Of a stretch of 64,000 bases of DNA, positions 20,623 to 42,241 are shown one piece after another. Each line of letters starts with the position of its first letter. The stretch's first letter is position 1. Source of the DNA: Candidatus Auribacterota bacterium. GTDB taxonomy: Bacteria; Auribacterota; Tritonobacteria; UBA1439. A program made the translations under genes and the position numbers. The notes beneath the pieces are model-generated. The model was not told the origin of the DNA. It did not search any database and saw only the letters and a list, made by a program, of their open reading frames with translations. The DNA lies in assembly GCA_026392015.1 (NCBI GenBank), contig JAPLCW010000172.1, forward strand, positions 6,320 through 70,319. The letters are read 5' to 3'.

Positions 20623-20775
20623 TGCTGATCTATTCATCAACTATTAACGTCTTAACCGCGGATTACGCTGATTACGCGGATTATTGTGTGTAATCCGCCT
20701 AATCCGCAAAATCCGCGGTTTCATACTCTAATCTATTTGAATTGCTCTTTTATGCTCCTGCTGAATGACCCATGC
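20623..20775. mobile_element. MITE family 2 (inverted orientation)
   Basis: TA-TGCTGATCTATTCATCAAC ... CTGCTGAATGACCCATGC-TA, with interior hairpin aaccgcggattacgctgattacgcggatt / aatccgcctaatccgcaaaatccgcggtt. The right TA is part of the stop codon at 20775-20777. Confidence 0.75.
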
Positions 20776-24756: not shown

Positions 24757-26380
24757 ATATCGTGCACTCCGCGTCAGAATATCGCAGTTTCAGGTGCGGC
24801 CTAGGCTGATAATCAGCCGGAGCTAAAATATAGCGCAACTTGTATTTTTTATACAATGTAGATGCATTACGCGGGATATCCGGCAGTAACACCTCATCAA
24901 CTTCCCCGTATTTTCGCTCCACGCTTTCCTGATACCTTGATAAATACCCGACGAGCCTCGGTCTATTGTACAGCGTTTGAAGACAATGGGCCTTGCACTT
25001 GTCATTAAGGGTATCCACTATTGCTCCGGGAGGCAATCGCTTGATCACATCGACATAGGGCGGAGGATCCAGCAGGGTTGCGTTCATCGGCGCTGGCAGA
25101 TATTCACCCACAAGCAGGACTACAAAGAGGACTCTCAGAACATTACTCTTTAAAAACTCGCTAAAAAACCTTGTGCATGCCATAGAGACTATGACCCCTG
25201 CCGAAAGGAACAGCATAACGGCCATCCTCACGGTGCAGCCGGCAACCCGCAATGGCGGGATAAGGTAGGTCAAGGCTCCATAGGGAAGAATAATTCCGGG
25301 AATTACTACTCCTGCGATGCGAAGGGTCGACCCAAGGGCAAGGAGAAAAAAGAAAATGAAGATCCCGTACCACAACCGTATATGCTTCGCATCAATTCGA
25401 TTTCTATTTACCCACGCATACACCAGGATAAACATCACCGAAAAACCGAGATGCACACTGGTTTCAGAGGTAGCCAAAGGAGTCCGCGACCAGAAAAATC
25501 TCGTCAATTCGCCAAAACGCCAATGAGCGCCGTATACAAATAGAGACATCACGTCAAGCCCGCCATCCGCAGCTCCTGCACTAAACGGATCTCTTGCATT
25601 TGCGAACAAAAATAAGCCCACGAGAACACCTGTAGTGACAAGGCTGAGATATAGGAAAAGCATAATAGGCCACACATAGTCTCGCCTGAAGATGAATAAA
25701 AAATCCTTTCTCCGCCACCCTCTATGGAGAAGCAGGATCCCGCCGGTCATAACCGAGTAGAAAGCATAGTAGTAGTCGCACAAAATCACGAGGAAAAGAG
25801 TGATGGCCGATGCAATTGCCCTGAACGTTGATGGCTCTTCCAGCAAGAGATAAAAAACAGCAATAAAGAGGGGCAGCCACTCCAATGAGACAAGTTGCAT
25901 ATGCCCCTGCGCCTGTCCAAAATGGTAACTTGAAAAAGTAAAAATATAACCCGCCAGGATGCTACCCCAGTACGATCGAGAAAAAATATAGGCCAGATAG
26001 AACGCCGACCATCCCCCCATAACAAATGAGAATATGACCATTACGTTGAATGCTTCACCGAGCGTGAGAAACTTCTGGAGAAGGATTCCTATATAGCCAT
26101 TGAATGGGTTCAGTGTATGTCCCAACAGCGTCGAGCCATGCGGGTAGTGCAGGTAATTTGTATACCAGACAGGCTGATGGAGCTCTGTCACCGCCTTATT
26201 GACCCACCACATATTCCATAAATTTTGACACCCATCTCCCTCGTCTTGAAAATAGTGCGTGCTGAATTTTAAAATGAGGGGAAATGTAAGTATGACAAAG
26301 CACACCAAATAGAATATTAACGGGAAGAGGAGCATCCGGGGAAAGTCATTGAAGATAGAATAGTTCCCTTTTGCATTCAT
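24740..26380 (-). CDS. polytopic membrane protein (YfhO-like/GT-C-like, uncertain)
   Basis: ATG at 26380 (MNAKGNYS...); the track start at 26413 is GTG. About 12 or more helices and a short soluble C-terminus. Confidence 0.5.
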   Translation of the reverse strand: MNAKGNYSIFNDFPRMLLFPLIFYLVCFVILTFPLILKFSTHYFQDEGDGCQNLWNMWWVNKAVTELHQPVWYTNYLHYPHGSTLLGHTLNPFNGYIGILLQKFLTLGEAFNVMVIFSFVMGGWSAFYLAYIFSRSYWGSILAGYIFTFSSYHFGQAQGHMQLVSLEWLPLFIAVFYLLLEEPSTFRAIASAITLFLVILCDYYYAFYSVMTGGILLLHRGWRRKDFLFIFRRDYVWPIMLFLYLSLVTTGVLVGLFLFANARDPFSAGAADGGLDVMSLFVYGAHWRFGELTRFFWSRTPLATSETSVHLGFSVMFILVYAWVNRNRIDAKHIRLWYGIFIFFFLLALGSTLRIAGVVIPGIILPYGALTYLIPPLRVAGCTVRMAVMLFLSAGVIVSMACTRFFSEFLKSNVLRVLFVVLLVGEYLPAPMNATLLDPPPYVDVIKRLPPGAIVDTLNDKCKAHCLQTLYNRPRLVGYLSRYQESVERKYGEVDEVLLPDIPRNASTLYKKYKLRYILAPADYQPRPHLKLRYSDAECTIYELLP

Positions 26381-26400
26381 AGTCACACTAAGAGCACTTT

Positions 26401-27633
26401 TTATATCTCGCACTGTGATGCCAAAGCAACCTTTCCCCGCAGGGACGTGCGAATTTCACATATATAAAGGCCCCAGACGAAATAGGCGACGACCAATGGA
26501 TGATACTCCCAAAATATATTGAGAAGGAAACTGAATCTCTTTAATCCCGGCAGGGGAGTTTCACCGGAGAGAATCGAGGGAAGGAGCAGAAGAACAATAA
26601 GGGGGATATATGCCTTTATATTCCTCGCTCGTTTCACTATGAAATATGTAGGCAGAAGCAACAGAACATAATAATAATCTTTGAAACGAGGAAGAATCAA
26701 GGCGTACACCACACAGGCCAGGAATATTATTATCTTGTCTTTATCCGGGAATCGACATGAGCGCACCGCGTTACATGCACGAATGCTTAAAGCGACTATG
26801 GCCGCAGCGAGCGCGATGAAAGCCACCCAATGGATTCCCTGTATTTCAACCACGCCCATTTTGTCCGCCAACGCATGGATAATGTCTTTGACAAAAGCAA
26901 GGGTTGAAGGTTGAATCAATCCGTTTTCCTCACCAAGGTAACATAACGCATTATGAACGAATTCCTCGAATAAGAGGGGGGAACTGAAATAGGAAACGGC
27001 CGTTGCACACAAAATAGCACCGATTGACCCCAAAAAGTATAGATGCCTTCGCTTATCTTCTGTGAACCATAAAAGAAATAAAAACAGCACTGGTGTAATC
27101 TTAATGATTGCTGCAATAACAATTAATGCACAGAATAATGCCATTCTTCTTTTTATAAAGCACGAAAACGCAATCCATTCCAGGAATAGTTCGAACAAAT
27201 GGATGCTCCCTGCTCTAAAATCTAAATAGATGGCACTCCGAAAGCCGAGCAAACATAAAAAATAGAAGAACAGATCTGTGTCCCTCTCGAGAAATTCCAC
27301 CCTCCAAAAATATATGAGCCCGACCAACAGTATGCACTTAATGAACAGGAATAATTGGCAGGCAACATTGTAGTCAAACAAGGTAAAAGGCATAAAGAGC
27401 CATAGCATAAAATATGGATAGGTATAGAGATTCAGAGAAGTTTTAGCTATTTCATTCACCGTCTTGCCACTATAAGGATCCAACCCTGCTGCATACGCTT
27501 TCGCCGCACAATAATTGGTCGTAAAATCCCACTGGAATGTATTTGGAACTGTACCTATCTTCGCTACAACGAGTATGCAATAGGCTAATAACTGACCATA
27601 CACGATTGCCATAAAATAACATTTCTTCATCAT
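26401..27633 (-). CDS. GT87/DUF2029-like polytopic membrane glycosyltransferase (PimE-like)
   Basis: 410 aa, entirely helical. The N-terminal loop WDFTTNYCAAKAYAAGLDPY resembles the DF..YY.A......G..PY signature of this family. Confidence 0.55.
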   Translation of the reverse strand: MMKKCYFMAIVYGQLLAYCILVVAKIGTVPNTFQWDFTTNYCAAKAYAAGLDPYSGKTVNEIAKTSLNLYTYPYFMLWLFMPFTLFDYNVACQLFLFIKCILLVGLIYFWRVEFLERDTDLFFYFLCLLGFRSAIYLDFRAGSIHLFELFLEWIAFSCFIKRRMALFCALIVIAAIIKITPVLFLFLLWFTEDKRRHLYFLGSIGAILCATAVSYFSSPLLFEEFVHNALCYLGEENGLIQPSTLAFVKDIIHALADKMGVVEIQGIHWVAFIALAAAIVALSIRACNAVRSCRFPDKDKIIIFLACVVYALILPRFKDYYYVLLLLPTYFIVKRARNIKAYIPLIVLLLLPSILSGETPLPGLKRFSFLLNIFWEYHPLVVAYFVWGLYICEIRTSLRGKVALASQCEI

Positions 27634-28770: not shown

Positions 28771-29604
28771 ATGCTCAGCGTGATCGTGCCGGTATATAAC
28801 GAGAGAGAAACTGTGGGACAGGTGCTGGCGGAGATAGACTCCTCCCTCACGGAGATTGACCACGAGATCATTGTGGTCGACGACGGCAGCACCGACGGTT
28901 CCCAAGAGTCTCTCAAGGGGATCAATGGAATAAAGTTGATCCGCCAAAGCGAAAATTGCGGCTACGGATATTCGATCAAGGCCGGCATCATGGAAGCCCG
29001 GGGCGAGAATATCGCCATCATCGATGCCGATGGCACCTATCCGGCCTGCAGGATACCGGAAATGCTCGCTCTCATGAACACTCATCAGATGGTCGTCGCC
29101 GCCAGGAAACCGCTCCCGCGATTCAATTATCTGGCAAAGTTGATACTGCGCGGGATTGTCTGGATTCTGACGAGGAGCAGCGTTCCCGACCTTAACTCGG
29201 GATTGCGGATCTTCAGGAAGGAACTGGCGGAGAAATACATGCACCTGCTCCCCGATGGCTACTCTTTCACCACCACCCTCACCATCGCATGTCTCTCAAA
29301 CCATCACAAAATCGCCTATCTCCCGATCGACTATCGCATGCGAAGGGGCCACAGCAAGCTGAAACCGTTGCGGGAGTTCTTTAAATTTATCATCCTCATC
29401 GTCCGGCTGGTCACGTACTTCAAACCCCTTGAGGTATTCCTTCCCGCGAGCGCGCTTCTTTTTCTCGCCGGCCTCGCGGTGGGATTTTACAGTCTCGTTG
29501 TGTACCATAGGGTAATGGATGTCACCATGATCGTCCTTATGTTATTTTCCGTGCAGATAGCGCTCCTCGGCCTCCTCGCGGATCTCATCAACAGAAAAAA
29601 ATAA
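28771..29604 (+). CDS. family 2 glycosyltransferase, GtrB/ArnC-like with two C-terminal TM helices
   Basis: ATG at 28771 is preceded by GGAGG; ATG at 28720 is an alternative. Motifs LSVIVPVYNERETV, IIVVDDGSTDGS and IIDADGTY. The C-terminal helices are typical of polyisoprenyl-phosphate glycosyltransferases. Confidence 0.8.
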   Translation: MLSVIVPVYNERETVGQVLAEIDSSLTEIDHEIIVVDDGSTDGSQESLKGINGIKLIRQSENCGYGYSIKAGIMEARGENIAIIDADGTYPACRIPEMLALMNTHQMVVAARKPLPRFNYLAKLILRGIVWILTRSSVPDLNSGLRIFRKELAEKYMHLLPDGYSFTTTLTIACLSNHHKIAYLPIDYRMRRGHSKLKPLREFFKFIILIVRLVTYFKPLEVFLPASALLFLAGLAVGFYSLVVYHRVMDVTMIVLMLFSVQIALLGLLADLINRKK

Positions 29605-29606
29605 TC

Positions 29607-31586
29607 ATGCCCAGGTTCCTGGATATACCCCCGGAGCTCTGCCACAATTGCGGGACGTGCATCGCCGTCTGTCCCTCTGGCGCGCTTTCCACAGGGCCAT
29701 CCCGGCCTCAGGTGAGCCCCGCATGCAAAGGATGCGGCGCATGTTATGCCATCTGCCCCGGCCTCGAAGTCGATTTCCTCGCCCTCAACCGATTTCTCTA
29801 TCCGGGGCAAATCCCCGATGTTTACTTCGGGTGCTATACGAAGATGTTTTTGGGGCGCGCGGTAAAAGGGCGTGCGCCGGGTTCCTCATCCGGGGGCGTC
29901 GTTACAGCCCTCCTCGCCAATGCGATGGAGAAGAAACTGATACGCGCCGCCCATCTGGTGTGCATGGATCCGTCCGCTCCCTGGCTTCCCAAACCTGAAG
30001 TTGCCTCCCGCCTGCAAGAAGTTCTAGAGGCATCCGGTTCAAAATATACCCTTGTTCCTGCAAACAGTCTCCTGGGAAAAACAAGCGGGCTGCGGGGGCC
30101 CACAGCCTTTGTGGGGCTGCCCTGCCACCTTCATGGCGTGAGGAAATTGCAGATTTCCCAATCTCCGCTGACGAGTCCCATTGCATACTCTATCGGACTC
30201 TTCTGCGGCTTCAATCTCCTACCCGACGCCACCCTCTTTCTTTTGAAGAAGCTGCGCCTGTCCCCCCAGGAGATCAAAAAAATTCACTACCGTTACGGTC
30301 CATGGCCCGGCAGTTTCGTGGCGGAGACAATGGATGGGAGAACCGAGCGCGTGCCCAAACTCGCTTTTAATTTCCTGCACTGGGCATACTCGCCTCCGCG
30401 CTGCGCGCTCTGCCCCGACCTATTTGCCGAATTGGCGGACATCTCGGTAGGAGACTATTGGCCTTCCGAGAAGGGAGGGGAGGCATTCTCTTCCATCATC
30501 GTGAGAAATGAGAGGGGACAGGAGCTTCTGGATTCCGCGGCGGCCTCGGGGGCGGTGGAGCTCACCGATCTCACGGCGTCGGACCTGTATCGCTCCCATG
30601 CGCACCTCATCAACTATAAGAAGCGTTCTTTCCTCATACGCCGCAAGACCAGCCGTCGCGCGCCCTCCTATACCATGAAAACGCCGCACCTTTCCGCCCG
30701 TGAACGTGTCACCGCGCTCCTGTCTTCAGCCGTACTGCGGTTCGGCAGATCGGGCTTTTCCAGGCGGCTCATGGACATCGTCCCGCTGGATGCCCTTGGC
30801 AGATGCGCCGGTCTCGCCCGGCGCTTTAGCATAAAATCCGGCACTCGCCGCTCCAAGAGATACTGGACTCTTTCCGACGTAGCAGCCCACTGGGATCAGA
30901 CTGACACCTATGACGCATTCAATGAAAAAACCTACTCCTACATGCGAAGGTTCACCGATGCCTATAAAATGGTCGGTGAGCGCATTGCGGACCGCGCCAG
31001 GGTACTCGACATATCCTGCCGGACGGGAATAGGAGCACTCTTCTTCGGCTCCCGCAAGAAGATCCAGATAGCGGGCATGGCGCCCTCATCGTCACAGCTC
31101 CGGGCGGCGCGGGAGCGCCTTGAAAATGCCGGCATTCCATTCACAGGCTACGAGTGGAATGAAATGCGACTGCCATTCCCTGATGAGAGTCTCGACTTCG
31201 CCCTCTCTTTTGAAACCATTGAACACACCTTCCAATACGAGGATCTCCTGGCGGAGATTCATCGGGTGCTTAAGAAAGGGGGGGGGTTCCTGCTCACCAC
31301 CCCCAATCTGCTCTGGGACCCCATCCACAGCCTCGCGGACTTGTTGCGCCTGCATCACGGCGAAGGGCCGCACCGTTTCCTGCCTCGCAGGGAGATTCTC
31401 CAGGCCCTGAAGTCCAGCGGATTTGCGATTGAGCAGGAGGCCTCGACCGTGCTGATCCCGTATGGGCCGGCCTGGCTGACCTCCCTTGGCGAGCGAATCG
31501 AGGGCTTACTCCCCGGCCGGATAAGGCGCATCGTCTGCCTCCGGAGAATCTTTTTCTGTACACCCGCGGCAAAGGATACGCCATGA
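29607..31586 (+). CDS. fusion protein: 2x[4Fe-4S] ferredoxin + FrhB/FdhB-like (F420 hydrogenase beta-type) domain + class I SAM methyltransferase
   Basis: CHNCGTCIAVCP and CKGCGACYAICP; GSSSGGVVTALL, VGLPCHLHG and CALCPDLFAELADISVGDYW (FrhB-like). The C-terminal part has VLDISCRTGIGALF and LKKGGGFLLTTPN. Confidence 0.75.
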   Translation: MPRFLDIPPELCHNCGTCIAVCPSGALSTGPSRPQVSPACKGCGACYAICPGLEVDFLALNRFLYPGQIPDVYFGCYTKMFLGRAVKGRAPGSSSGGVVTALLANAMEKKLIRAAHLVCMDPSAPWLPKPEVASRLQEVLEASGSKYTLVPANSLLGKTSGLRGPTAFVGLPCHLHGVRKLQISQSPLTSPIAYSIGLFCGFNLLPDATLFLLKKLRLSPQEIKKIHYRYGPWPGSFVAETMDGRTERVPKLAFNFLHWAYSPPRCALCPDLFAELADISVGDYWPSEKGGEAFSSIIVRNERGQELLDSAAASGAVELTDLTASDLYRSHAHLINYKKRSFLIRRKTSRRAPSYTMKTPHLSARERVTALLSSAVLRFGRSGFSRRLMDIVPLDALGRCAGLARRFSIKSGTRRSKRYWTLSDVAAHWDQTDTYDAFNEKTYSYMRRFTDAYKMVGERIADRARVLDISCRTGIGALFFGSRKKIQIAGMAPSSSQLRAARERLENAGIPFTGYEWNEMRLPFPDESLDFALSFETIEHTFQYEDLLAEIHRVLKKGGGFLLTTPNLLWDPIHSLADLLRLHHGEGPHRFLPRREILQALKSSGFAIEQEASTVLIPYGPAWLTSLGERIEGLLPGRIRRIVCLRRIFFCTPAAKDTP

Positions 31587-33046
31587 AGACAGTGCTCATA
31601 TACCCTTCGCTGACCCCCGGCATCAGGCCCCGGTACGGTCTCCAACCGCTTGGGATTCTCTATCTCGCAGCCAGGCTCAAGGCTGCGGGGGTACAGGTCG
31701 AGATCATCGATGCGGAGATCCTCGGATTGACCATCGAGGCCACCGTTGAAGCCGCCCTTGCTTCGCAGCCCGATCTCGTCGGCATAAGCGCCATGACACC
31801 TCAATACCCGGCGGCACTGGCACTCGCGAAGATGATTAAAAAGCGCGACCCGCGAATCAAGGTATGTCTGGGGGGCTCCCATATCAACGCAACGCAGGCC
31901 GAGTCACTGCGCCTCTCTGATGCGGTTGACTTTCTTGTCTACGGCGAGGGGGAAAACACCCTTGCAGAAGCCGTGGATGTTCTCCGCAGGGGTGACACAC
32001 TCTCCGGCGTGAAAGGGGTAATATATAAAGATAACGGTTCCCTCGCAGTAAATCCACCACGACCGCTTGCTTCTGATATCGATGAGTTCCCATTCCCGGA
32101 TTTCCGCATGGTGCCCCTCGCGCGCTATCGGATACCGTATCTTCAGGGCAGACCGATCGGTTCGATGATATTGAGCCGGGGATGCCCCTATTCGTGCATA
32201 TTCTGCGACGCGTACGTGACACAGGGGAAAAAGCTCAGGCGGCACTCTCCCGAGAGGATCGTACGGGAGATCAAATCATGCAGGAAGGATTTGCATATCA
32301 GAAATTATTCCTTCAAGGACAGCACCTTCACGCTTGACCGCGCCTGGTGCCTCGAACTCTTGCAGCGGTTTATCAAGGAAAAGCTGGATATCCGCTATAG
32401 ATGCAATACCCGTGTGGACAGAATCGACAGCGAGATTCTCCACACGCTCAAGGCATCAGGGTGTACCATGCTCCTCTTTGGGGTGGAATCCGGCTCGCAG
32501 GGCATCCTTGATAAAATGAGAAAGGGCACTACGGTGCAGCAGATACGGCATGCCTTTTCCCTGAGCGCTCGCACCGGAATCCCCACCTATGCCTCATTCA
32601 TGCTCGGCAATATCGGCGAAACCACCGAGACCGCGAGACAGACCATTGAGCTCGCGAAGGCCATCAACCCCGATATTGCGCTCTTTTTCTTCACCACCGC
32701 CTATCCGGGGACGGACCTCTACAACCAGGCCCTCACGAACAGCCTTGTCTCCAAAGACTGGTGGATCAAGGAACAAACCCTCTCCAATGACTATGCGTTC
32801 AGCAAATGGCTGTCCGGAGAGGGAGGGAAGCTGAGGATACAAGGCTTCGATACCGATTACTGGATAAGAAAGGCGTACAGGAGTTTTTATTTCCGCCCCG
32901 CCTACCTGCTGAAGATCGTCGTGGCGCTCTTTAAAAATCCTCGATACATTATAAATCTTTTATATTCCTTCCCCGGGCTTTTAAGTTTTACCCGGAGGAA
33001 GAAAAACACGGGACCCCTCATTCAATCCGGAGAAACCGCCGACTGA
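31583..33046 (+). CDS. B12-binding-domain (class B-like) radical SAM protein
   Basis: The N-terminal Rossmann-like region is VLIYPSL...GILYLAARLKAAGVQVEIID...VGISAM. Motifs SRGCPYSCIFC (CxxxCxxC). The ATG overlaps the upstream stop as ATGA. Confidence 0.85.
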   Translation: MKTVLIYPSLTPGIRPRYGLQPLGILYLAARLKAAGVQVEIIDAEILGLTIEATVEAALASQPDLVGISAMTPQYPAALALAKMIKKRDPRIKVCLGGSHINATQAESLRLSDAVDFLVYGEGENTLAEAVDVLRRGDTLSGVKGVIYKDNGSLAVNPPRPLASDIDEFPFPDFRMVPLARYRIPYLQGRPIGSMILSRGCPYSCIFCDAYVTQGKKLRRHSPERIVREIKSCRKDLHIRNYSFKDSTFTLDRAWCLELLQRFIKEKLDIRYRCNTRVDRIDSEILHTLKASGCTMLLFGVESGSQGILDKMRKGTTVQQIRHAFSLSARTGIPTYASFMLGNIGETTETARQTIELAKAINPDIALFFFTTAYPGTDLYNQALTNSLVSKDWWIKEQTLSNDYAFSKWLSGEGGKLRIQGFDTDYWIRKAYRSFYFRPAYLLKIVVALFKNPRYIINLLYSFPGLLSFTRRKKNTGPLIQSGETAD

Positions 33047-33057
33047 TAAGGCCACGG

Positions 33058-33282
33058 ACCTGGATTTATTCCTCAGAAGCGCAAAGGAGCAATCTTAGCG
33101 GATTAAAGCAGGAAACCGCGGATTATGCGGATTGGGCGGATTATATAAGGTGAAGCGTAAGTAACCACGGATGAACACGGCAAATTAGAGGTCCAGGAGA
33201 AAGTTTGACTTTTTCCATTATTTCTTCTGCAGTTGTTTGAATCCGCGTAATCCGCGGTTAAGACTTTGATAAAGAAATCTGA
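33058..33282. mobile_element. MITE family 2 (degenerate, with internal insert)
   Basis: ACCTGGATTTATTCCT ... GATAAAGAAATCTGA-TA, with hairpin arms aaccgcggattatgcggattgggcggatt / aatccgcgtaatccgcggtt. Confidence 0.65.
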
Positions 33283-33373
33283 TAGCCGGTCTGGTTCTAT
33301 TGTTATAGAATTTCCGTGACGCTGCGTGCTCCGCAGCGTATGCTCGGTTCCACAACCCAGGTGTGTCACTTAC

Positions 33374-34729
33374 ATGGCCCGTACAGTTCTATTGATCTTC
33401 CAGGCGCCGACCCAGAGGCGGTTGTTTATAAATACCCTGCCCCCCCTGGGGATTCTCGGTATTGCCTCATACCTGACGTCCAAAGGGCTCGATGTCACCG
33501 TCAGAGACTGTTACACAGACATGCTTCGTGACGAGGATATTCTCCGCGCGGATCTTATCGGTCTCAGCATCAACGTATCAAATGTCGAAAACTCGCTGAA
33601 CACCATCGCCCGAATTTCCCGTGCGTGGCCGGAGAAACGAATCGTGGTGGGCGGTCCCCTCCCCATGTCCGCTCCGGAACAGATCATCCGTCAGGAGGGG
33701 ATTCGCGCGGTGGCAATCGGCGAGGGCGAAGAGATCATGCACCAGCTCGCCACAGAGGAATCGTGGGATGCCATTAAAGGGCTTTACCTGAAAGACGATA
33801 CCGGCAGGATATTCTTTACGGGGGCGCGAGAGCCGATCAGGAATCTTGACCTTCTCCCCTTCCCGGCGCTGGACAGGGTGGATCTATCCCGCTACTACTC
33901 GCCCGTCAAGAAGGCCCTCCCCATATCCAACATCATGACTTCGCGCGGATGCCCGTTCAACTGCATTTTTTGTTTCAAGACGATGGGGAGCGCCTGGAGG
34001 GCCCGCTCCGTGAAGAACGTCGTGGATGAAATCGAATGGCAGGTGCACGCTTTTGGGGTAAGAGAGATATGCATCTACGATGATAATTTCAGCATGGATG
34101 TGGAGCGCGCGGAAGCCATTTGCGACGAGATTATCGAACGAAAAATCAAGGTCCATCTCCAGCTTCCCAACGGGATCAGGGTGGATCGCCTTACGCGCGC
34201 CGCTCTCCGGAAGCTGAAGGCCGCGGGTGTGTGGCTCGTGGGTGTCGCGCCTGAGACGGGAAGCAGGGAAACACTGAAAAAGATTTCAAAGGGCTTCGAT
34301 CTGGATAAGGTTTCAGATGTCGTACGCTGGTGCAAAGAGGAAGGGATCTCCACCTACTCATTTTTCATGATCGGCTTCCCCTGGGAAGAGAAAACGCATA
34401 TAGAGGACACCATACGCTTTGCCACGGGGCTTGACACGGAGCTGACGCAGTTTTCACGAGTGACCGCCTTCCCCGGAACCGCGCTCTATGATATACTGCT
34501 TCGCGAAGGCGCAATCAGAGGAACCGCCCTGCGCGATCAGGGGTTGTTTTATGGCGGCACGTCGCACATGGTCAAGGGAATCAGCGACGCCGAGCTTCGC
34601 CGCCTGATCACCCGGGCATATCGAAGGGCATACCTTCGGCCCGGGAAATGGCTGCGCTTGCTGCGGATGCTTTCGTTGAGAGACCTCTGGAACCTTTTTG
34701 TGTACTCGCTCACCACCGGAAGCATATGA
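33374..34729 (+). CDS. B12-binding-domain (class B-like) radical SAM protein
   Basis: Trimmed to the ATG at 33374 (MARTVLLIFQAP...). Motifs GILGIASYLTSKGLDVTVRD, GLSINV and SRGCPFNCIFC. Confidence 0.85.
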   Translation: MARTVLLIFQAPTQRRLFINTLPPLGILGIASYLTSKGLDVTVRDCYTDMLRDEDILRADLIGLSINVSNVENSLNTIARISRAWPEKRIVVGGPLPMSAPEQIIRQEGIRAVAIGEGEEIMHQLATEESWDAIKGLYLKDDTGRIFFTGAREPIRNLDLLPFPALDRVDLSRYYSPVKKALPISNIMTSRGCPFNCIFCFKTMGSAWRARSVKNVVDEIEWQVHAFGVREICIYDDNFSMDVERAEAICDEIIERKIKVHLQLPNGIRVDRLTRAALRKLKAAGVWLVGVAPETGSRETLKKISKGFDLDKVSDVVRWCKEEGISTYSFFMIGFPWEEKTHIEDTIRFATGLDTELTQFSRVTAFPGTALYDILLREGAIRGTALRDQGLFYGGTSHMVKGISDAELRRLITRAYRRAYLRPGKWLRLLRMLSLRDLWNLFVYSLTTGSI

Positions 34730-34754
34730 CCGGCGCGGGAGCAGACGGGGACAA

Positions 34755-35504
34755 ATGAATCAGTATAGTATCTCCATGGTACTCCCGATGTTCAATGAGA
34801 AGGACTATGTAACGAGAACCGTGGCCCTCGCGATCCGCACGCTCGATACCATCACGGACGATTACGAGATCATTATTGTGGACGACGCGAGCACGGACGG
34901 CTGCGGTGATATCGCCGATCGCATGTCCCGGGATAACCGAAAGATTAAGGTCCTGCACCACAAGGTGAACTCGAAGCTGGGCGCGACCCTGCGAACCGGC
35001 TTTGCCGCTGCGCAGAAGAATCTTGTTGTCTACAGCGACATGGATCTCCCGTTTGACTTTGAAGAAATCAAAAAGGCACTGAGGGTCATGGATCTGACCG
35101 ATTGCGATATCGTGACCGTCTATCGCCATGACCGAACGAGCGAGGGTCTCCTGCGGGCAGTCTATTCCGCGGGCTACAATATGCTCATACGCATCATGTT
35201 CGGGGTGCGCGTCCGGGATATCAACTTTTCCTTCAAGCTCTTCAAGAGGAAGATACTGGAATCCATGCAATTGCGGTCCAACGGCTCTTTCATCGATGCG
35301 GAACTGATCATACGGGCGATCCGCGCGGACCACCATGTATCTCAATTTGGAATAGACTACTTTCCCAGATCCAGGGGCACGTCGACCCTCTCCAGTCCGG
35401 GGATCATCCTCACAATCTTCAAAGAGATGATCTCATTTCGAATCAGACTCTTCACACGCAGTAAGGATGCGCCTCCATCGAGGCGCGCTCTTCCGCCGGA
35501 ATGA
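34755..35504 (+). CDS. family 2 glycosyltransferase, Dpm1/GtrB-like
   Basis: Trimmed to the ATG at 34755 (MNQYSISMVLPMFNEKDYV). Motifs IIIVDDASTDG and VVYSDMDLP. Confidence 0.8.
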   Translation: MNQYSISMVLPMFNEKDYVTRTVALAIRTLDTITDDYEIIIVDDASTDGCGDIADRMSRDNRKIKVLHHKVNSKLGATLRTGFAAAQKNLVVYSDMDLPFDFEEIKKALRVMDLTDCDIVTVYRHDRTSEGLLRAVYSAGYNMLIRIMFGVRVRDINFSFKLFKRKILESMQLRSNGSFIDAELIIRAIRADHHVSQFGIDYFPRSRGTSTLSSPGIILTIFKEMISFRIRLFTRSKDAPPSRRALPPE

Positions 35505-36925
35505 ATAAAATCCTTTTCCTGAACCCGCCGCTCTCCACGCAAGAACGCTACGGCGCGCTGGCGGCGGCGGGGGCAATGGAGCCGCCCCACGGTCTCACGT
35601 ATCTGGCGAGCGTGATGAGGGAGTCGGGATGGGACACTCACATACTGGATGCCGAGGCGCTACGGCTCAATGAGAGTGAAGCCGTCGAGAGAACCATCTC
35701 CCTCTCACCGGAAATAGTTGCGTGCACCGCCGTCACTCTCTCCATACAACGTGCTGCCGCGGTGGCCGCAGCGGTCAAGAAACTCCGTCCCGATATCATC
35801 ACAATTGCAGGGGGGGTGCACCTCACCTCACAGCCCAATGAGACCATGCTCCGTTTCCCGTCTTTCGACTATGGCGTCATCGGAGAAGGGGAGCGCACGC
35901 TTGCGGAGCTTGCAGCAGCACTGTCTGACAATCAGGAGACGCGGGGGATACCGGGGGTCGTGTCGCGGGACGGGGCGCGTGTGCACCAGGCCCCGCGGAG
36001 ACCGTTCATCAAAGAACTCGATACCCTCCCCATGCCGGCATGGGATCTCCTGCCGCACCTCCCCCGCTATTACTATCTTCCACCGCAGAGCATCCAGGCT
36101 ACCCCCTCCACTTCACTCATCACCTCGCGCGGATGCACCGGGCGCTGCATTTTTTGCGACACAAGCGTATTCAGGAATGTGTGCAGGGCGCACAGCGCCG
36201 AATACGTCGTGGAGATGATCCGAACACTCCGCCATCGGTTCGGCATTAGAGAAATCCTCTTTGAGGATGACAACTTCATGATCTTCGGCCGCCGCCTTCA
36301 ACAGCTTACCGAACTTATGACCCGCGAAGGTATTACGCTGAGCTGGAGCTGCCTGGCACGGGCGGACATGATGCCCGACCCTTCGGTACTCCAGGACATG
36401 CGCAGAGCGGGGTGCTGGCAGATACTCATCGGCATCGAATCCGGATGCCAGGAGATTCTCGACTTTGAGAAGAAAGGCATTACGCTGGAACAGATAGAGG
36501 ATGCGGTACGCCGCGTGCGCAGCGCCGGAATGAGGACAAAAGGATTCTTGATGCTGGGGCACCCGATGGAAACAGAGGAAACGATCAAGAGGACATTGCG
36601 GTTTGTGACACGCATCCCCCTGGATGACATCAGCGTCACATTTTTTACCGTGTTTCCCGGAGCCCCGATCGCGGAGGAGGCCTCGCGCTACGGCAGAGTG
36701 ATCTCCGATTTCAGCAAAATGAGTGTCTTCCAGCCCACCTTTATCCCCGAGGGATTTACCGCCGAGAAGCTCGACCTGTACGCCCGCTACTATCTGAAAA
36801 AATTCTACCTCAGGCCGAGGATTGTACTTTCGTATCTGGGAAGAATGAGGAGCTGGCGGCAACTAAGAGCGATGCTCAAAGGGGCATGTGCCCTACTCGG
36901 GCATCTGTTTCGCAGGCATGCATGA
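35501..36925 (+). CDS. B12-binding-domain (class B-like) radical SAM protein
   Basis: ILFLNPP...GLTYLASVMRESGWDTHILD, SRGCTGRCIFC. The ATG overlaps the GT2 stop as ATGA (35501-35504). Confidence 0.85.
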   Translation: MNKILFLNPPLSTQERYGALAAAGAMEPPHGLTYLASVMRESGWDTHILDAEALRLNESEAVERTISLSPEIVACTAVTLSIQRAAAVAAAVKKLRPDIITIAGGVHLTSQPNETMLRFPSFDYGVIGEGERTLAELAAALSDNQETRGIPGVVSRDGARVHQAPRRPFIKELDTLPMPAWDLLPHLPRYYYLPPQSIQATPSTSLITSRGCTGRCIFCDTSVFRNVCRAHSAEYVVEMIRTLRHRFGIREILFEDDNFMIFGRRLQQLTELMTREGITLSWSCLARADMMPDPSVLQDMRRAGCWQILIGIESGCQEILDFEKKGITLEQIEDAVRRVRSAGMRTKGFLMLGHPMETEETIKRTLRFVTRIPLDDISVTFFTVFPGAPIAEEASRYGRVISDFSKMSVFQPTFIPEGFTAEKLDLYARYYLKKFYLRPRIVLSYLGRMRSWRQLRAMLKGACALLGHLFRRHA

Positions 36926-37265: not shown

Positions 37266-40178
37266 CTATTTCTTGTAGACGCTCTTCTCGTCGAATGCCT
37301 GGACTCGGTGGTTTTGCGTGTCGGCGATGTACACGCGCCCACCACGGATTGCGATGCCGATCGGGATGTTGAAATCACCCGGCTTGAACCCCTTCCCGGA
37401 CCAGAGTCCGAGGAGAGTGCCTGAGGAATCGAAAATTTGGATCCTGTTATTCCGGCTGTCGGTGACCCAGACCCTGCTCTTCGCGTCGACCGCGACGAAA
37501 GGCTCCGTATAAAACTCCTCCCATCCGAGGACGCCGAACATGCCTAGGAATTTCCCATTCAGATCAAATTTCTGCACGCGCTTGTTGGCGGTGTCGGTCA
37601 CGTACACCACCTCTCCCCTCACCTCTTTCTGCTTCTTCTCCTTGTCCGCCGGCGCAATGATCCCGTTCGGATCAATGGCGACCCCCACCGGCTCACCGAA
37701 CTCGCCCGGCTTCTCCCCTACCCTTTGCTCCTCGCTGCCCCATAAGAGGAGAGACTTCCCCTCGCGGCTGAACTTCTGGATGCGGTGCCTGCCGGTGTCC
37801 GCTACGTAGAGGTTCCCGGCGCTATCGAACGCCAGGCCCTTCGGCGCCCAGAAAACCTCCGGCCCACCCCACTGGAATACAAATTTCCCGGTAGCGTCGA
37901 ATTTCTGAATCCTATGGTTCCACGTGTCAGAAACGTAGACGTTCCCCTCCTGATCCACCGCGATCCCTGTCGGTTGCTCGAACTGCGCCTCACCCTTCCC
38001 CTGCGCGCCGACGCTCAATAAAGGCTTCCCCTCCTTATCGAACTTCTGCCAGCGATGATTCTTCGTGTCGGCGACATAGATCGACCCCTCGCCATCCGCG
38101 CATATCCCCCGCGGCTCATCGAAGCGACCGGGCGCCGAACCGCGCTCGCCGAAGATCAGGGCAGGCTTCACCTGGCCGATGATCTCGTACTTCTCCGGCA
38201 CGATCGGCTTCAGCTTTGGTGTGCCCTCGCCCTCTTTTATCTCCTGCACGGCGCCCATCTTCTCCCCCACGAGATCCTTACGGACGTAGAAGGCGATATC
38301 CTGCGATCCCGCCGGGTCAGGATTCTCACTCCACCAGCCTTTGCGCTTCGTGGGGTTCCACGTCTCGCGGAAGAAGTAGTACTTGAGCCACGCGGCCACG
38401 GGGTTCTTAAGAGTGCTCGCGGGATCCGGGATCCACCAGACCCGCAGCTTCCGCCTCTTCTCAATGTAGTTCGGCTCGAGGATATTGCCGTAGTCCTTCC
38501 TCTTCTCCCAGTCAACCGCCACGACCGCCTTTTGTGTGTTCGTAATCGATCCGGGATGGAACCAGTTCTTGTAGTCGCGCAGGTACCAGGTGAACGGCCA
38601 CGACGATTCGCCCTGCACGCCTATCGCGAAATTTTCGCCCTTGCCCGTTTGCGCGGCGTATTCGGCGATCTCCTTGAGGCACTCCTTGATATCAACGGAC
38701 GTCTGCGTATACACCATCCGCTCCACCGGATTCGCCTCATTGATAAAGCAGAGGCGGAGCGAGGCCTGGAGATAGAGGAGGATGCCTATCATGCAGAGGA
38801 CAACATATGCATTCGCATGCCTTCTGAACCTCTCCGAACGGAGGAACTCATCCATGAAGAGGCTAACCCACAGCACGAGCGGCATGAGGATGTGCATGAG
38901 GAGCCAGGGAACCTTTTCGCCCGCATAGGAGTAGATGAGGGCGCTTGACATGCTCCAGTATGCGAGAAAGGCAGGGAAGCGCCGCCCCTCCTCAAGGTAG
39001 TGGCACACCGCGGTGAACATTATCACGAATATGTAAACGGCGAAAACGATATGGAGCGTGTTCGTCATGTGAAACTTCGTATCCCAGGGGTCAGCGGGGA
39101 GGGTCTGGTGCCAGAAGAGCATGAGCGGGATTCCGATAACCGAGCTGACGAGAAGAATGTTCCGGGAGAGACGCGACGTCTTCAGCAGCGCCACGAGGCC
39201 CGCGAACAGGATGACGAGGAGGGGCAGTTCGTACACGATGGCGAGCGGGCAGAAATAGGTGAACACATCCTTGATGCGCTGGATCTTGTCCTGGTGAACC
39301 CAGTAGCCGAGCGATTTGCGATAGAGCCCGTCTACGAAGCCCCCCGGATTCTGAAAGAAAGAGGTGAAAAAGAGGTAGAAGACTCCAAAAAAGATAGCGA
39401 GCGAAATGAGGATGTCCAGCAGCGGGATTTTTGCCGCGGGTAGTTGCACGACGGCCTCCCCCTCGGCCTTGCCTTCGCCCTCACTTTCGGCATTACCTTC
39501 GGCCTCACCTTCAGCCTCACCCTCGGTGGGCTCGCGTTTGACAAAAAATCTTTCAAATATCCGCATAAAAACGGGAAAACTCACGAAAATAGCGAGAAAG
39601 ATATACGAATTCTCCTTCACGCAGAATACAAAGGCGAACGCGGCGGCAGCACCGTAGAGGAACCCCCTCTTCCGAGTATCAAGGTAGTTCACAAAGAGCG
39701 CGAAGGCAAGGAATGCCCAGAAGGCGACGAAGATATCCTCTCTGAAGAAACGGGAGAAATACATAAAAGTAGGCGAGATGGCAAAGAGCGCAGCCGCGGT
39801 GAGACTGCCGATCTTGCCGAGCCGCCTCCGCAGGAGAAGAGTGCAACAGACCAGGGCGATCCCGAAGACCGCCGATGACGAACGCGCGACGAAATCGCCG
39901 GCGCCGAACAGCGAGAAGAGCATGGCGTCGAGGTAGAACATGAACGGCCCGTGCATCATCGGGTCGTACTTGTACCCTTTGCCGTCGTAGAGGTACCAGG
40001 AGTAGGTCGCATAGAGGCTCTCGTCATGGTGATACGGTTTGAGCTGAAGTCCGTAGACACGGGTAAATATAGTGAATACGATGATGGCCAGGTAGATGGC
40101 CTTGTACCAGTCGAATCGGATGACAAGGTACTCTTTCTCAGGAGCGGCAGAAGCGGTTGGATCTATGTTCTGGTTCAT
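37266..40178 (-). CDS. TIGR03663-like GT-C glycosyltransferase fused to a C-terminal six-bladed NHL-repeat beta-propeller
   Basis: N-terminus: LKPYHHDESLYATYSWYLYDGKGYKYDPMMHGPFMFYL. C-terminus: six repeats of the type F.EP.GIAVD..G.IYVADT.NHRIQKFD. An acidic insert, EGEAEGEAEGNAESEGEGKAEGEA, lies in a loop. Confidence 0.8.
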   Translation of the reverse strand: MNQNIDPTASAAPEKEYLVIRFDWYKAIYLAIIVFTIFTRVYGLQLKPYHHDESLYATYSWYLYDGKGYKYDPMMHGPFMFYLDAMLFSLFGAGDFVARSSSAVFGIALVCCTLLLRRRLGKIGSLTAAALFAISPTFMYFSRFFREDIFVAFWAFLAFALFVNYLDTRKRGFLYGAAAAFAFVFCVKENSYIFLAIFVSFPVFMRIFERFFVKREPTEGEAEGEAEGNAESEGEGKAEGEAVVQLPAAKIPLLDILISLAIFFGVFYLFFTSFFQNPGGFVDGLYRKSLGYWVHQDKIQRIKDVFTYFCPLAIVYELPLLVILFAGLVALLKTSRLSRNILLVSSVIGIPLMLFWHQTLPADPWDTKFHMTNTLHIVFAVYIFVIMFTAVCHYLEEGRRFPAFLAYWSMSSALIYSYAGEKVPWLLMHILMPLVLWVSLFMDEFLRSERFRRHANAYVVLCMIGILLYLQASLRLCFINEANPVERMVYTQTSVDIKECLKEIAEYAAQTGKGENFAIGVQGESSWPFTWYLRDYKNWFHPGSITNTQKAVVAVDWEKRKDYGNILEPNYIEKRRKLRVWWIPDPASTLKNPVAAWLKYYFFRETWNPTKRKGWWSENPDPAGSQDIAFYVRKDLVGEKMGAVQEIKEGEGTPKLKPIVPEKYEIIGQVKPALIFGERGSAPGRFDEPRGICADGEGSIYVADTKNHRWQKFDKEGKPLLSVGAQGKGEAQFEQPTGIAVDQEGNVYVSDTWNHRIQKFDATGKFVFQWGGPEVFWAPKGLAFDSAGNLYVADTGRHRIQKFSREGKSLLLWGSEEQRVGEKPGEFGEPVGVAIDPNGIIAPADKEKKQKEVRGEVVYVTDTANKRVQKFDLNGKFLGMFGVLGWEEFYTEPFVAVDAKSRVWVTDSRNNRIQIFDSSGTLLGLWSGKGFKPGDFNIPIGIAIRGGRVYIADTQNHRVQAFDEKSVYKK

Positions 40179-40969: not shown

Positions 40970-42070
40970 TCAGGAATAGAATGACCGCACCGCATCAACA
41001 ACTGCAGCCACCCCGTCTTCTCCAAGCTCAGGATACATGGGAAGAGAGAGTATCTCACCCGCAACCTGTTCTGCGACAGGGAAATCCCCCTTTTTATGTC
41101 CAAGCTCTTTATACGCCTGCTGAAGATGAATGGGAATCGGGTAATGGACCCCTGTTGCTATTCCTTTGCGGTGGAGGTGATCGGCGAGTGCGTCGCGCTC
41201 CTTTACCCGGATCACATAGAGGTGGTACACATGTCTCACCGATTCGAGTTCACGAGGGCATACCAACGGCAGACCCGTAAACATCTTCCCGTAGAGTTTC
41301 GCCCATTGTCGCCGCGCATCATTCCACTGGCGAAGATGTTTGAGCTTCACGAGCAGAATCGCAGCCTGTATGTTGTCGAGCCGGCTGTTGTGCCCTTTCA
41401 CAAGGTGCTCGTACTTGCCCCTGCGCCCGACATTCCTGAGGACCGCCACCTTTTCTGCGAGCTTCTCGTTTCCCGTCACCACCATTCCCCCATCGCCAAA
41501 TGCTCCGAGGTTCTTCCCGGGATAGAAACTGAAACAACCGATATCGCCGAAACCTCCCACTCGGACACCGTTATACTCGGCGCCGTGGGCCTGGCAGGCA
41601 TCCTCGACAATGGCGAAACCGCGTTCCCGCGCGAGCCGCTTCAGCGGATCCATATCGACCGCCTGACCGTAGAGGTGGACCGGAATTACGGCCCTGGTTC
41701 TGGGCGTGAGCGCTTTCTCCACGTGGCCTGCGGAAAGGTTGTATGTATCCGGATCAGTATCGACGAACACCGGCCTTGCCCCCACCATGCTCACCGCGAG
41801 GGCGGTGGCGATAAAAGTATTTACCGGGACAACAACCTCATCGCCCGGACCGATGCCGAGCGCCTCCAGCGCAAGCTGGAGGGCGTCTGTCCCGGATGCG
41901 ACGCCGACTGCCGCAGATACTCCGCAGAAAGAGGCGAATTCGCGTTCCAACCGCTCAACCTCCGGCCCAAGAACAAACCGCCCATCCGCCATAATCTCGC
42001 GGACGACCGGCTCGACCTCGGCGCCGATCTCTCTGTACTGAGCTCGCAAATCAACAAGTGGAACAGTCAT
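40970..42070 (-). CDS. DegT/DnrJ/EryC1/StrS-family PLP-dependent sugar aminotransferase
   Basis: Trimmed to the ATG at 42070 (MTVPLVDLRAQYREIGAEV), preceded by AAGGA. Motifs GTDALQLAL, FYPGKNLGAFGDGG and EILSLPMYPEL. Confidence 0.85.
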   Translation of the reverse strand: MTVPLVDLRAQYREIGAEVEPVVREIMADGRFVLGPEVERLEREFASFCGVSAAVGVASGTDALQLALEALGIGPGDEVVVPVNTFIATALAVSMVGARPVFVDTDPDTYNLSAGHVEKALTPRTRAVIPVHLYGQAVDMDPLKRLARERGFAIVEDACQAHGAEYNGVRVGGFGDIGCFSFYPGKNLGAFGDGGMVVTGNEKLAEKVAVLRNVGRRGKYEHLVKGHNSRLDNIQAAILLVKLKHLRQWNDARRQWAKLYGKMFTGLPLVCPRELESVRHVYHLYVIRVKERDALADHLHRKGIATGVHYPIPIHLQQAYKELGHKKGDFPVAEQVAGEILSLPMYPELGEDGVAAVVDAVRSFYS

Positions 42071-42088
42071 CCTTATCCTTTCTGGCAA

Positions 42089-42168
42089 TGTGGGAGCGGC
42101 TTCCAGCCGCGCTCGAGCCGAGATAGTCCTCCGACAATGACAATCGGGGCGAGGACGCCCCTCCCACA
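42089..42168. repeat. palindromic repeat family 7
   Basis: TGTGGGAGCGGCTTCCAGCCGCGCTCGAGCC...GGGGCGAGGACGCCCCTCCCACA, with a further CCCTCCCACA half-site at about 42205-42214. Confidence 0.6.
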
Positions 42169-42241
42169 GTATGCTCTTATCTCGATAGCTAAATTGCTCT
42201 CCCCGCCCTCCCACAATTGCGAAGCCTGACTAAAATCATGC

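Follow-up and report, generated by a model that had tools for sequence, protein, structure and literature searches.

A six-gene cassette at positions 28771-36925 of a 64,000-nucleotide stretch of DNA from a Candidatus Auribacterota bacterium (assembly GCA_026392015.1, contig JAPLCW010000172.1, positions 6,320 to 70,319; the whole stretch is referred to as the window) combines glycosyltransferases of family 2 (GT2) with radical S-adenosylmethionine (SAM) proteins that carry a B12-binding domain. With moderate confidence, we read it as a two-module tailoring cassette of an Arn-like lipid-carrier system, in which the carrier-linked sugar would be tailored by the radical SAM enzymes and then transferred by a GT-C glycosyltransferase. 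Genes for GT2s of the putative polyprenyl-phosphate sugar synthase type and for GT-C enzymes are co-encoded in the window (5 GT2, 5 PMT_2 and 1 GT87), and the association of GT2 and radical SAM genes recurs in related genomes.

Anatomy of the cassette

The six genes all lie on the + strand at the coordinates of the original prediction, which had been made from the sequence alone, and each of their Pfam matches scores above the curated cutoff:

28771-29604, + strand: GT2a, first gene of module A (PF00535, 89.9 bits)
29607-31586, + strand: fusion protein of 659 aa (Fer4; FrhB_FdhB_N, 60 bits; FrhB_FdhB_C, 113.7 bits; methyltransferase, 57.7 bits)
31583-33046, + strand: rS1, B12-binding (95.6 bits) and Radical_SAM (75.7 bits), with an ATGA overlap onto the fusion gene
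33374-34729, + strand: rS2, B12-binding (56.8 bits) and Radical_SAM (81.6 bits), first gene of module B
34755-35504, + strand: GT2b, middle gene of module B (PF00535, 89 bits)
35501-36925, + strand: rS3, B12-binding (76.2 bits) and Radical_SAM (88.8 bits), with an ATGA overlap onto GT2b

Module A thus runs from GT2a through the ferredoxin/FrhB-like/methyltransferase fusion to rS1, and module B from rS2 through GT2b to rS3. The gene order and domain content proposed earlier stand, including the Fe-S/methyltransferase fusion at 29607 (Fer4, FrhB_FdhB_N/C and a class-I methyltransferase), and inspection of the sequence confirms the ATGA start/stop overlaps at 31583 and 35501. A GGAGG ribosome-binding site precedes the GT2a start at 28771 by 10 nt, and the shorter starts at 28771, 33374 and 34755 are adopted because the orthologs measure 277, 451 and 249-263 aa, respectively. 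A count of hydrophobic segments finds no membrane-spanning stretch in the radical SAM proteins, the fusion or GT2b, which are therefore taken to be cytoplasmic. The cassette encodes no nucleotidyltransferase, no precursor peptide and no lipid-synthesis protein.

Conservation of the modules and their neighbourhoods

All six genes recur in the same order in one related locus (L176; loci are numbered with the prefix L), with 57-69% identity, and all six are also present in L087, from a metagenome-assembled genome (MAG) labelled Chlamydiota, with 55-67% identity. In L087 the two halves are swapped, for which reason they are regarded as separable modules. GT2a is 66% and rS2 62% identical to the orthologs of both loci, and rS2 orthologs of 451 aa lie directly upstream of the GT2b ortholog in L086, L087, L176 and L177. 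The same fusion sits between a GT2 gene and an rS1-like gene in L001, L087 and L176. Module A recurs in L001 beside GT87, PMT_2 and GHMP kinase genes, as in the window; the GT87 gene adjoins the rS1-like gene in both L001 and L087, so that its position beside module A is kept, and the order PMT_2, GHMP kinase, PMT_2 is repeated upstream of module A on a 96-kb contig. Module B recurs in L086 and L177, where it comes after up to four more B12-type radical SAM genes and immediately before a PMT_2 gene; a PMT_2 gene is also the next one after the rS3-like gene in L177 and L089.

More distant relatives, with 41-50% identity, stand in neighbourhoods of similar composition: LPG_synthase_TM, radical SAM, PMT_2, GT2, Asn synthase and radical SAM in L002; GT2, NodB-type deacetylase, radical SAM, PMT_2, GT2 and LPG_synthase_TM in L003; and GT2, NodB-type deacetylase, radical SAM, SPASM radical SAM, GT2 and GT2 in L178. 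In L089, the gene for a radical SAM-YdjC fusion belongs to a polysaccharide locus of the Wzt/Wzy type and immediately precedes two PMT_2 genes. The clade of rS3 is large, with 1486 homologs at E<1e-20, and in 80 metagenome loci of this clade the density of GT2 genes is 0.171 per kb within 1 kb of the rS3-clade gene versus 0.042 at 6-10 kb; the corresponding values are 0.124 versus 0.036 for methyltransferase genes and 0.156 versus 0.048 for further B12-type radical SAM genes. A scan of a broader genome set with a generic CxxxCxxC-type pattern, in which the relatives listed are 27-40% identical, finds an adjacent same-strand GT2 for 20 of 116 B12-type radical SAM open reading frames among the matches listed and for none of the 16 weakest radical SAM matches among those listed. 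When the GT2 neighbours of B12-type radical SAM genes in other phyla are sampled, the best model is AglJ, ArnC, PgfS or PpgS in 10 of 10. The link between GT2 and radical SAM genes is thus conserved, as the original prediction supposed: the block is whole in L176 and L087, is partly present in L001, L086 and L177, and GT2 genes are enriched next to its relatives in other phyla.

Some related loci are richer still. Six or seven B12-type radical SAM genes occur in one glycan locus in L015 (MAG E14_metabat.bin.161), L177 and a 25-kb contig of ERZ1426817, and one radical SAM-methyltransferase fusion of 722 aa is found among these loci. A tractable relative is the cultured sulfate reducer Solidesulfovibrio carbinolicus DSM 3852, whose plasmid pDCAR1 (L091, 66129-82916) carries genes for an epimerase, an acyltransferase, a glycosyltransferase, a B12-type radical SAM protein and three more radical SAM proteins.

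Two GT2s of the DPMS/ArnC/GtrB type

GT2a matches best, among NCBIfam models, AglJ, the Dol-P-hexose transferase, PpgS and ArnC, all below cutoff, and its best matches in the PDB are PfDPMS (5MLZ, 3.5e-21), ArnC and GtrB, with nearly full-length alignment. It has three C-terminal hydrophobic segments at residues 206-268, and the alignment with ArnC and GtrB extends through them. GT2b gives a similar picture (ArnC, AglJ and the Dol-P-hexose transferase in NCBIfam, all below the equivalog cutoff; ArnC, GtrB and DPMS in the PDB) and has no hydrophobic segment; soluble polyprenyl-phosphate sugar synthases of the DPM1/Ppm1 type exist. By sequence, GT2a and GT2b resemble polyprenyl-phosphate monosaccharide synthases of the DPMS/ArnC/GtrB type. 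An HpnI-like identity was rejected for both, given that their best matches in NCBIfam and the PDB are DPMS, ArnC and GtrB. This bears on the precedent that the original prediction considered closest, namely the hopanoid pair HpnI/HpnJ: HpnJ is indeed the nearest curated family of the radical SAM proteins, but the GT2s are not HpnI-like, and their likeness to DPMS, ArnC and GtrB makes an Arn/Gtr-type lipid-carrier route that feeds GT-C enzymes the better framework.

Radical SAM proteins without a characterised family

The two domains read from the sequence earlier are recovered by profile search in rS1, rS2 and rS3. The N-terminal B12-binding domain PF02310 gives 95.6, 56.8 and 76.2 bits, respectively, against a Pfam cutoff of 32.1 bits, and the radical SAM core PF04055 gives 75.7-88.8 bits against 29.5 bits; all three contain the CxxxCxxC motif (CPYSCIFC in rS1, CPFNCIFC in rS2 and CTGRCIFC in rS3). 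A fourth protein, rS0, is encoded at the window start:

3-812, + strand: rS0, a fourth HpnJ-like radical SAM protein, of which the window edge leaves the C-terminal part (Radical_SAM, 38.8 bits)
919-3051, + strand: GT-C (PMT_2; Pfam match, 11 hydrophobic segments), after rS0

The original prediction had listed rS0 as a fourth paralog beside a GT-C gene, of which the Radical_SAM core and the PMT_2 neighbour hold, while the region of the B12 domain lies outside the window. Pairwise identity is 28-32% among rS1-rS3 and 24-28% between rS0 and rS1-rS3, and the four, called paralogs in the original prediction, are old, distinct subfamilies and not a recent expansion.

Among the curated models, HpnJ (TIGR03471) ranks first for rS0, rS1 and rS2 and second, after BchE, for rS3. 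Against its cutoff of 577.6 bits, rS1 scores 226, rS2 171, rS3 171 and rS0, which aligns to model positions 224-416, 82.7 bits. The BchE model (TIGR02026, cutoff 481 bits) gives 137-190 bits (190 for rS1 and 187 for rS3), and the lipid-type model rSAM_ladder_B12 gives 104-123 bits, lower than the HpnJ scores. In a neighbour-joining (NJ) distance tree, which is rough and carries no support values, rS1, rS2 and rS3 fall in three separate clades, each with its own orthologs; the HpnJ proteins of Mycetohabitans, Burkholderia and Methylobacterium form a clade of their own that excludes rS1-rS3, and BchE is separate as well. The identity of rS1 to the genuine HpnJ of Burkholderiaceae megaplasmids is 30-32%. 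Membership in the HpnJ family was rejected in view of scores 2.5- to 3.4-fold below the cutoff and a position outside the HpnJ clade, and membership in the BchE family in view of 137-190 versus 481 bits, the separation in the NJ tree and the lack of bch genes in the window. HpnR, PhpK, the ladderane-type lipid family and the C-methyltransferase families of ribosomally synthesized and post-translationally modified peptides were likewise rejected, as all scores are below the curated cutoffs. It follows from these scores and the NJ tree that rS1-rS3 stand outside the characterised non-glycan clades, as the glycan role proposed for them had presupposed.

The AlphaFold2 model of rS1 (mean predicted local distance difference test score, pLDDT, 89) has its best fold match in AprD4 (template-modelling scores 0.71/0.76), followed by MgmA, TsrM, TokK, CysS and OxsB, and AprD4 is also the top PDB match by sequence. 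AprD4 is a radical SAM 1,2-diol dehydratase acting on an aminoglycoside sugar, and this fold match of the rS1 model to a sugar-acting enzyme lends support to the lipid-carrier reading. Neither sequence nor fold comparison tells a methylase from a dehydratase or from an enzyme that contracts the ring. The C-terminal tails of rS0-rS3 are strongly basic and hydrophobic, with 12-14 Lys/Arg in the last 70 residues, which is suggestive only of an association with the membrane interface. Members of the rS3 clade also occur fused to a YdjC domain, with 196-203 bits on the HpnK model (cutoff 232.6), and others are fused to methyltransferases.

The likeness to HpnJ raises the alternative that the GT2s attach a sugar to a membrane lipid (a polyprenol or some other lipid alcohol) and that the hexose or hexosamine ring is then contracted to a carbocyclic cyclitol, yielding an acid-stable end-product lipid and no donor. 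Ring contraction is the role proposed for HpnJ and the calditol synthase Cds (PMC13459092), HpnJ leads the curated models for three of the proteins (rS0, rS1 and rS2) and comes second for rS3, an HpnK-like deacetylase is fused to enzymes of the rS3 clade, the genuine hpn order of hpnI, hpnJ, hpnK and LPG_synthase_TM is mirrored in L002, L003 and L013, and Amino_oxidase (HpnE/CrtI-like) genes lie near relatives. We nevertheless consider it unlikely: the scores fall 2.5- to 3.4-fold short of the HpnJ cutoff and the proteins group outside the HpnJ clade, GT2a and GT2b are DPMS/ArnC-like rather than HpnI-like, a deacetylase and LPG_synthase_TM were not found in the window, and GT-C genes are tightly linked. 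After ring contraction, the cyclitol phosphate should not be transferable by a GT-C enzyme, for which it would be no normal donor, and hence an end-product lipid would be expected instead.

A lower probability still is assigned to a target other than a sugar, such as the polyprenyl or lipid tail (methylated or cyclised, as by GrsA/B or HpnP/R) or the glycan-receiving protein. Several characterised class B enzymes do act on lipid chains (PMC13459092), rSAM_ladder_B12 gives 104-123 bits and large secreted subtilases are encoded in the window. However, the lipid-type model scores below HpnJ, the linkage is specific to GT2s of the polyprenyl-phosphate sugar synthase type and to sugar deacetylase fusions, the methyltransferase domain of the fusion resembles sugar O-methyltransferases and the cassette contains neither a precursor peptide nor a lipid-synthesis gene, so that this explanation appears very improbable.

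The fusion protein of module A

The fusion protein contains two ferredoxin-type [4Fe-4S] motifs, an FrhB-like flavin/Fe-S oxidoreductase and a class-I SAM methyltransferase that matches Pfam Methyltransf_11/23/25. In the PDB, its N-terminal part is matched by 8riu_B, Fsr (the electron-input half), FrhB and HCAR, and its methyltransferase part by the D-glucose O-methyltransferase 6UV6 and MitM. For module A, a serious alternative to C-methylation is a radical dehydration followed by a reduction, in which the FrhB-like domain would serve as reductase; such an AprD4/AprD3-like deoxygenation would explain why the FrhB-like protein is invariably linked to this module. Another possibility is that the FrhB-like domain merely supplies electrons to the radical SAM cluster or to cobalamin.

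The same features bear on whether the radical SAM enzymes work upstream of the GT2s, on soluble nucleotide-activated sugars, through C-methylation or AprD4/AprD3-like deoxygenation with the FrhB-like protein as reductase, the GT2s then loading the modified sugar. The top PDB match of rS1 by both sequence and fold is AprD4, a reductase-type FrhB domain is always found between GT2a and rS1, and the FrhB family includes substrate reductases, for example HCAR; there is also a precedent in Fom3, a class B radical SAM enzyme that acts on a nucleotide-linked substrate. This order of events is nonetheless improbable, as it is at odds with the neighbouring deacetylases of the ArnD/HpnK type, which in known systems act post-transfer, with the tails of rS0-rS3, whose basic and hydrophobic character suggests a membrane interface, and with the lack of a nucleotidyltransferase gene inside the cassette.

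The proposed pathway and its weak points

In the lipid-carrier reading, gene anatomy and conservation are observed and we infer each enzymatic step. GT2a and GT2b would each load a monosaccharide from a nucleotide sugar onto polyprenyl (undecaprenyl) phosphate at the cytoplasmic face, like DPMS, ArnC and GtrB, and the carrier-linked sugar would then be modified in the cytoplasm by radical SAM enzymes of class B type, with rS1 acting together with the FrhB-like flavin/Fe-S reductase and the fused methyltransferase in module A, and rS2 and rS3 acting in module B. In each radical SAM enzyme, a 5'-deoxyadenosyl radical would take a hydrogen atom from an unactivated sugar carbon. The tailored donor would be flipped across the membrane, where a GT-C enzyme (PMT_2 or GT87) would attach the modified sugar to a protein or glycan of the cell surface. 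Among the possible reactions, a cobalamin-mediated C-methylation is the most likely; it is the commonest class B reaction and is favoured because it would leave the anomeric phosphate transferable by a GT-C enzyme.

The individual steps have precedents. GT-C enzymes take lipid-phosphate sugar donors on the outer face, and ArnD, DprE1/E2 and the ORF13 epimerase tailor such lipid-linked donors on the cytoplasmic side (PMC11127046). Action on lipid-linked hexoses has been proposed for two radical SAM enzymes, HpnJ and Cds (PMC13459092). Given that the radical SAM proteins are predicted to be cytoplasmic and GT-C enzymes work on the outer face, the radical step should precede flipping and take place on the carrier-linked sugar or on its nucleotide precursor. 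The carrier-linked substrate is favoured because deacetylases of the ArnD (NodB) and HpnK (YdjC) types occur beside the relatives or fused to them, because the genuine hpn cluster follows a like logic, with hpnI, hpnJ, hpnK and LPG_synthase_TM in a row, and because of the basic and hydrophobic tails of rS0-rS3, which are again suggestive only. Deacetylases of the ArnD and HpnK types act, in known systems, on amino sugars after their transfer to the lipid.

Several points weigh against this reading. None of the NCBIfam matches of the cassette proteins reaches its cutoff, no member of the clades concerned has been characterised, and the tree that sets these clades apart is a rough one. AprD4 does not use or bind cobalamin, and since it is the best fold match of rS1, B12 dependence and methylation are putative; the use of cobalamin by rS1-rS3 is predicted from their sequences, as is the polyprenyl-phosphate acceptor of GT2a and GT2b. 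The radical SAM enzymes could instead act on nucleotide sugars before the GT2 step. Neither a deacetylase nor LPG_synthase_TM was recognised in the window with relaxed Pfam searches and home-made hidden Markov models (HMMs), nor was a flippase, whether of the GtrA, ArnE/F, MATE or LPG_synthase_TM-like kind. Finally, a nearby GT2 gene is present in only about one-quarter to one-third of the loci of the wider family, a count in which many contigs are short and GT2 genes were detected by home-made HMMs.

Relation to known systems

In function, the cassette looks like an Arn/Gtr-type lipid-carrier system to which radical SAM tailoring has been added, whereas in sequence it stands nearest to HpnJ without being a member of that family. 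With the Arn system (ArnC, ArnD, ArnE/F, ArnT) and the three-component Gtr systems it shares GT2s of the DPMS/ArnC/GtrB type, predicted to make a polyprenyl-phosphate monosaccharide, the cytoplasmic tailoring of a lipid-linked donor, with ArnD-type NodB deacetylases beside the relatives in L003 and L178, and a final transfer by GT-C outside the cytoplasm. In contrast to these systems, the tailoring enzymes of the cassette are radical SAM proteins, there are several modules with up to nine GT-C-like proteins per locus, and no flippase is recognised in the window.

The hpn cluster likewise co-encodes a GT2, a B12-domain radical SAM protein, a sugar N-deacetylase and LPG_synthase_TM (HpnI/J/K/L), HpnJ is the top curated model for three of the four window proteins, and members of the rS3 clade carry a fused HpnK-like domain. 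With this fusion and with LPG_synthase_TM recurring nearby, the hopanoid analogy is stronger than the original prediction could know. On the other hand, identity to genuine HpnJ is 30-32%, with scores far below the cutoff and separate clades, and the window differs in its DPMS/ArnC-like GT2s, in the linkage to GT-C and in containing no hopanoid genes, no deacetylase and no HpnL-like gene.

AprD4 (with AprD3) and GenK offer a further comparison. In the rS1 model, the N-terminal Rossmann-like domain, the radical SAM barrel and the C-terminal helices are shared with AprD4, and the logic of aminoglycoside pathways, in which a glycosyltransferase is followed by a deacetylase and then by radical tailoring, is the same as that proposed here; identity is, however, about 21%, the substrates are soluble pseudo-oligosaccharides of antibiotic pathways, and the reductase partner in the cassette is FrhB-like, versus a short-chain dehydrogenase/reductase for AprD4. 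We know of no link between Cds and GT-C enzymes. By its description, this calditol synthase of Sulfolobus is alike in being a radical SAM enzyme for which a remodelling of the hexose head group of a lipid has been proposed (PMC13459092), and unlike in that its substrate is an archaeal tetraether lipid.

A search of the literature found no description of radical SAM enzymes in combination with polyprenyl-phosphate GT2 and GT-C systems, in agreement with the original prediction, which was aware of no account of several distinct radical modifications in an envelope glycosylation system. The word "radical" is absent from a paper on three-component glycosylation (PMC11127046), and nothing on polyprenyl, undecaprenyl or dolichol substrates appears in a 2026 review of radical SAM enzymes that modify lipids (PMC13459092). 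A broader proposal, which we put forward tentatively and rate as somewhat less than probable, is that B12-type radical SAM enzymes are widespread as a fourth, as yet unrecognised component of lipid-carrier glycosylation among anaerobic bacteria and archaea, most of them uncultivated, and make C-methylated, branched, deoxygenated or carbocyclic sugars on undecaprenyl- or dolichyl-phosphate that GT-C enzymes install on surface proteins or glycans. The lineages concerned would be Auribacterota, Omnitrophota, Elusimicrobiota, anammox Planctomycetota, the Candidate Phyla Radiation (CPR) and DPANN.

If this were true, a locus with four to seven of these enzymes would specify several different sugars of radical origin, and the envelope and S-layer glycans of many uncultivated anaerobes would hold sugars made by radical chemistry on the lipid carrier, a step that present models of the Gtr, Arn and mycobacterial-type pathways do not include. 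The very numerous metagenomic B12 radical SAM genes that are unannotated beyond "BchE/YgiQ-like" would gain a concrete and testable class of substrates. Simple modules of two or three genes (GT2 plus radical SAM) would become available for tests in E. coli, and there would be consequences for the reaction of HpnJ, itself unproven. By mass alone, C-methyl and O-methyl groups are indistinguishable. GT2-radical SAM pairs of this family are present in anammox genomes (L007). The S-layer glycan of Kuenenia is heavily methylated, as assigned from mass alone (PMC5088730).

The surrounding glycan locus

According to a Pfam scan and a hydrophobic-segment count of the window proteins, positions 1-42000 form one glycan locus, which the account in the original prediction understates. 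Its approximately 40 kb encode six radical SAM proteins, five GT2s and six recognisable GT-C proteins (five PMT_2 and one GT87), together with three polytopic membrane proteins without a Pfam match, three stand-alone methyltransferases, a GHMP kinase, a hexapeptide acyltransferase, a GFO/IDH/MocA oxidoreductase and a DegT aminotransferase. A radical SAM gene is touched by four of the five GT2 genes, including two extra GT2-radical SAM pairs with ATGA overlaps at 9256 and 11240, in which the radical SAM protein is not of the B12 type. The GT-C proteins have 7-11 hydrophobic segments each. Apart from the genes listed above, the window contains the following features:

4927-7221, - strand: large polytopic protein, 9-10 hydrophobic segments, no Pfam match
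8117-9259, + strand: GT2e, ATGA overlap with the next radical SAM gene
9256-10356, + strand: radical SAM protein with neither a B12 nor a SPASM domain, paired with GT2e
10500-11240, - strand: GT2d, ATGA overlap with the SPASM/twitch radical SAM gene
11237-12442, - strand: SPASM/twitch radical SAM protein, paired with GT2d
12382-14367, - strand: large polytopic protein, 9-10 hydrophobic segments, no Pfam match
14381-17119 and 40970-42214: hexapeptide acyltransferase, GT2c, GFO/IDH/MocA oxidoreductase and DegT aminotransferase
17257-19263, + strand: GT-C (PMT_2; Pfam match)
19583-20575, - strand: GHMP sugar kinase (Pfam match)
20775-22940, - strand: GT-C (PMT_2; Pfam match)
22954-24756, - strand: GT-C (PMT_2; Pfam match)
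24740-26413, - strand: polytopic membrane protein, 9 hydrophobic segments, no Pfam match, its place held by a DUF6311 protein in L001
26401-27633, - strand: GT87-family GT-C, mannosyltransferase-like (PF09594, 65.3 bits)
37266-40178, - strand: GT-C (PMT_2, 46.7 bits) with a C-terminal NHL beta-propeller (167 bits), 10 hydrophobic segments
49416-51875, - strand: MetH-like cobalamin-dependent methionine synthase (homocysteine, pterin, B12-cap and B12 domains), without the reactivation domain
52433-56452, - strand: S8 subtilase of 1339 aa with PPC and TSP3-type repeats
57434-60754, - strand: S8 subtilase of 1106 aa with PPC and TSP3-type repeats
61444-62208, - strand: UppP/BacA undecaprenyl-diphosphatase (PF02673, 220 bits), lipid-carrier recycling

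The GT-C gene at 37266-40178, which is convergent with the cassette, is a candidate user of the lipid-linked donor, and the protein at 24740-26413 is possibly GT-C-like. The three polytopic proteins without a Pfam match may be further GT-C-like transferases, polymerases or the missing flippase, and the two very large S8 subtilases are possible surface acceptors of the glycans. The pair of GT2e and its non-B12 radical SAM partner is also present in L085, and the SPASM/twitch radical SAM protein has its best PDB match, a weak one, in BlsE, a sugar-acid decarboxylase. The group of acyltransferase, GT2c, oxidoreductase and DegT genes resembles the WbpB/WbpD/WbpE set for acetamido-sugar synthesis; the related locus L178 has a DegT gene as well as a gene whose product fuses GFO/IDH/MocA and hexapeptide parts.

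The host phylum, Candidatus Auribacterota, belongs to the Planctomycetes-Verrucomicrobia-Chlamydiae (PVC) group, and its members are described as anaerobic fermenters with cobalamin importers (PMC9324843). Among named relatives, the ClpB of the window is closest to those of Candidatus Aureabacteria (82%) and of a MAG labelled Chlamydiota (79%), in keeping with this placement. The MetH-like gene shows that the organism uses cobalamin, and an H+-pyrophosphatase is encoded downstream of the glycan locus. An Rfam scan of the window matched no family, including no cobalamin riboswitch, and Asn synthase and amine oxidase genes were not found in the window by relaxed Pfam searches and home-made HMMs.

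An extragenic repeat between the modules

The 327-nt spacer between modules A and B contains an inverted repeat:

33114-33259: inverted-repeat element resembling a repetitive extragenic palindrome (REP), with 20-nt arms at 33114-33133 and 33240-33259 that are 95% complementary

It is missing at the syntenic position of L176, where the spacer measures 28 nt, and is for this reason regarded as an insertion that lies outside the system. The original prediction had called it a miniature inverted-repeat transposable element (MITE). This identity is rejected, given that the 20-mer AACCGCGGATTAYGCGGATT occurs in 10 intergenic copies with variable arm spacing, which a REP-like palindrome fits better; from their sequence, the repeats look like a family of extragenic palindromes of the REP or bacterial interspersed mosaic element (BIME) type. 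The 10 copies in the window, versus 0 expected, are confined to intergenic gaps (10450-10469, 17166-17223, 19318-19553, 20654-20720, 33114-33259 and 51982-52001), mostly as inverted pairs, and the spacing between the arms differs from pair to pair.

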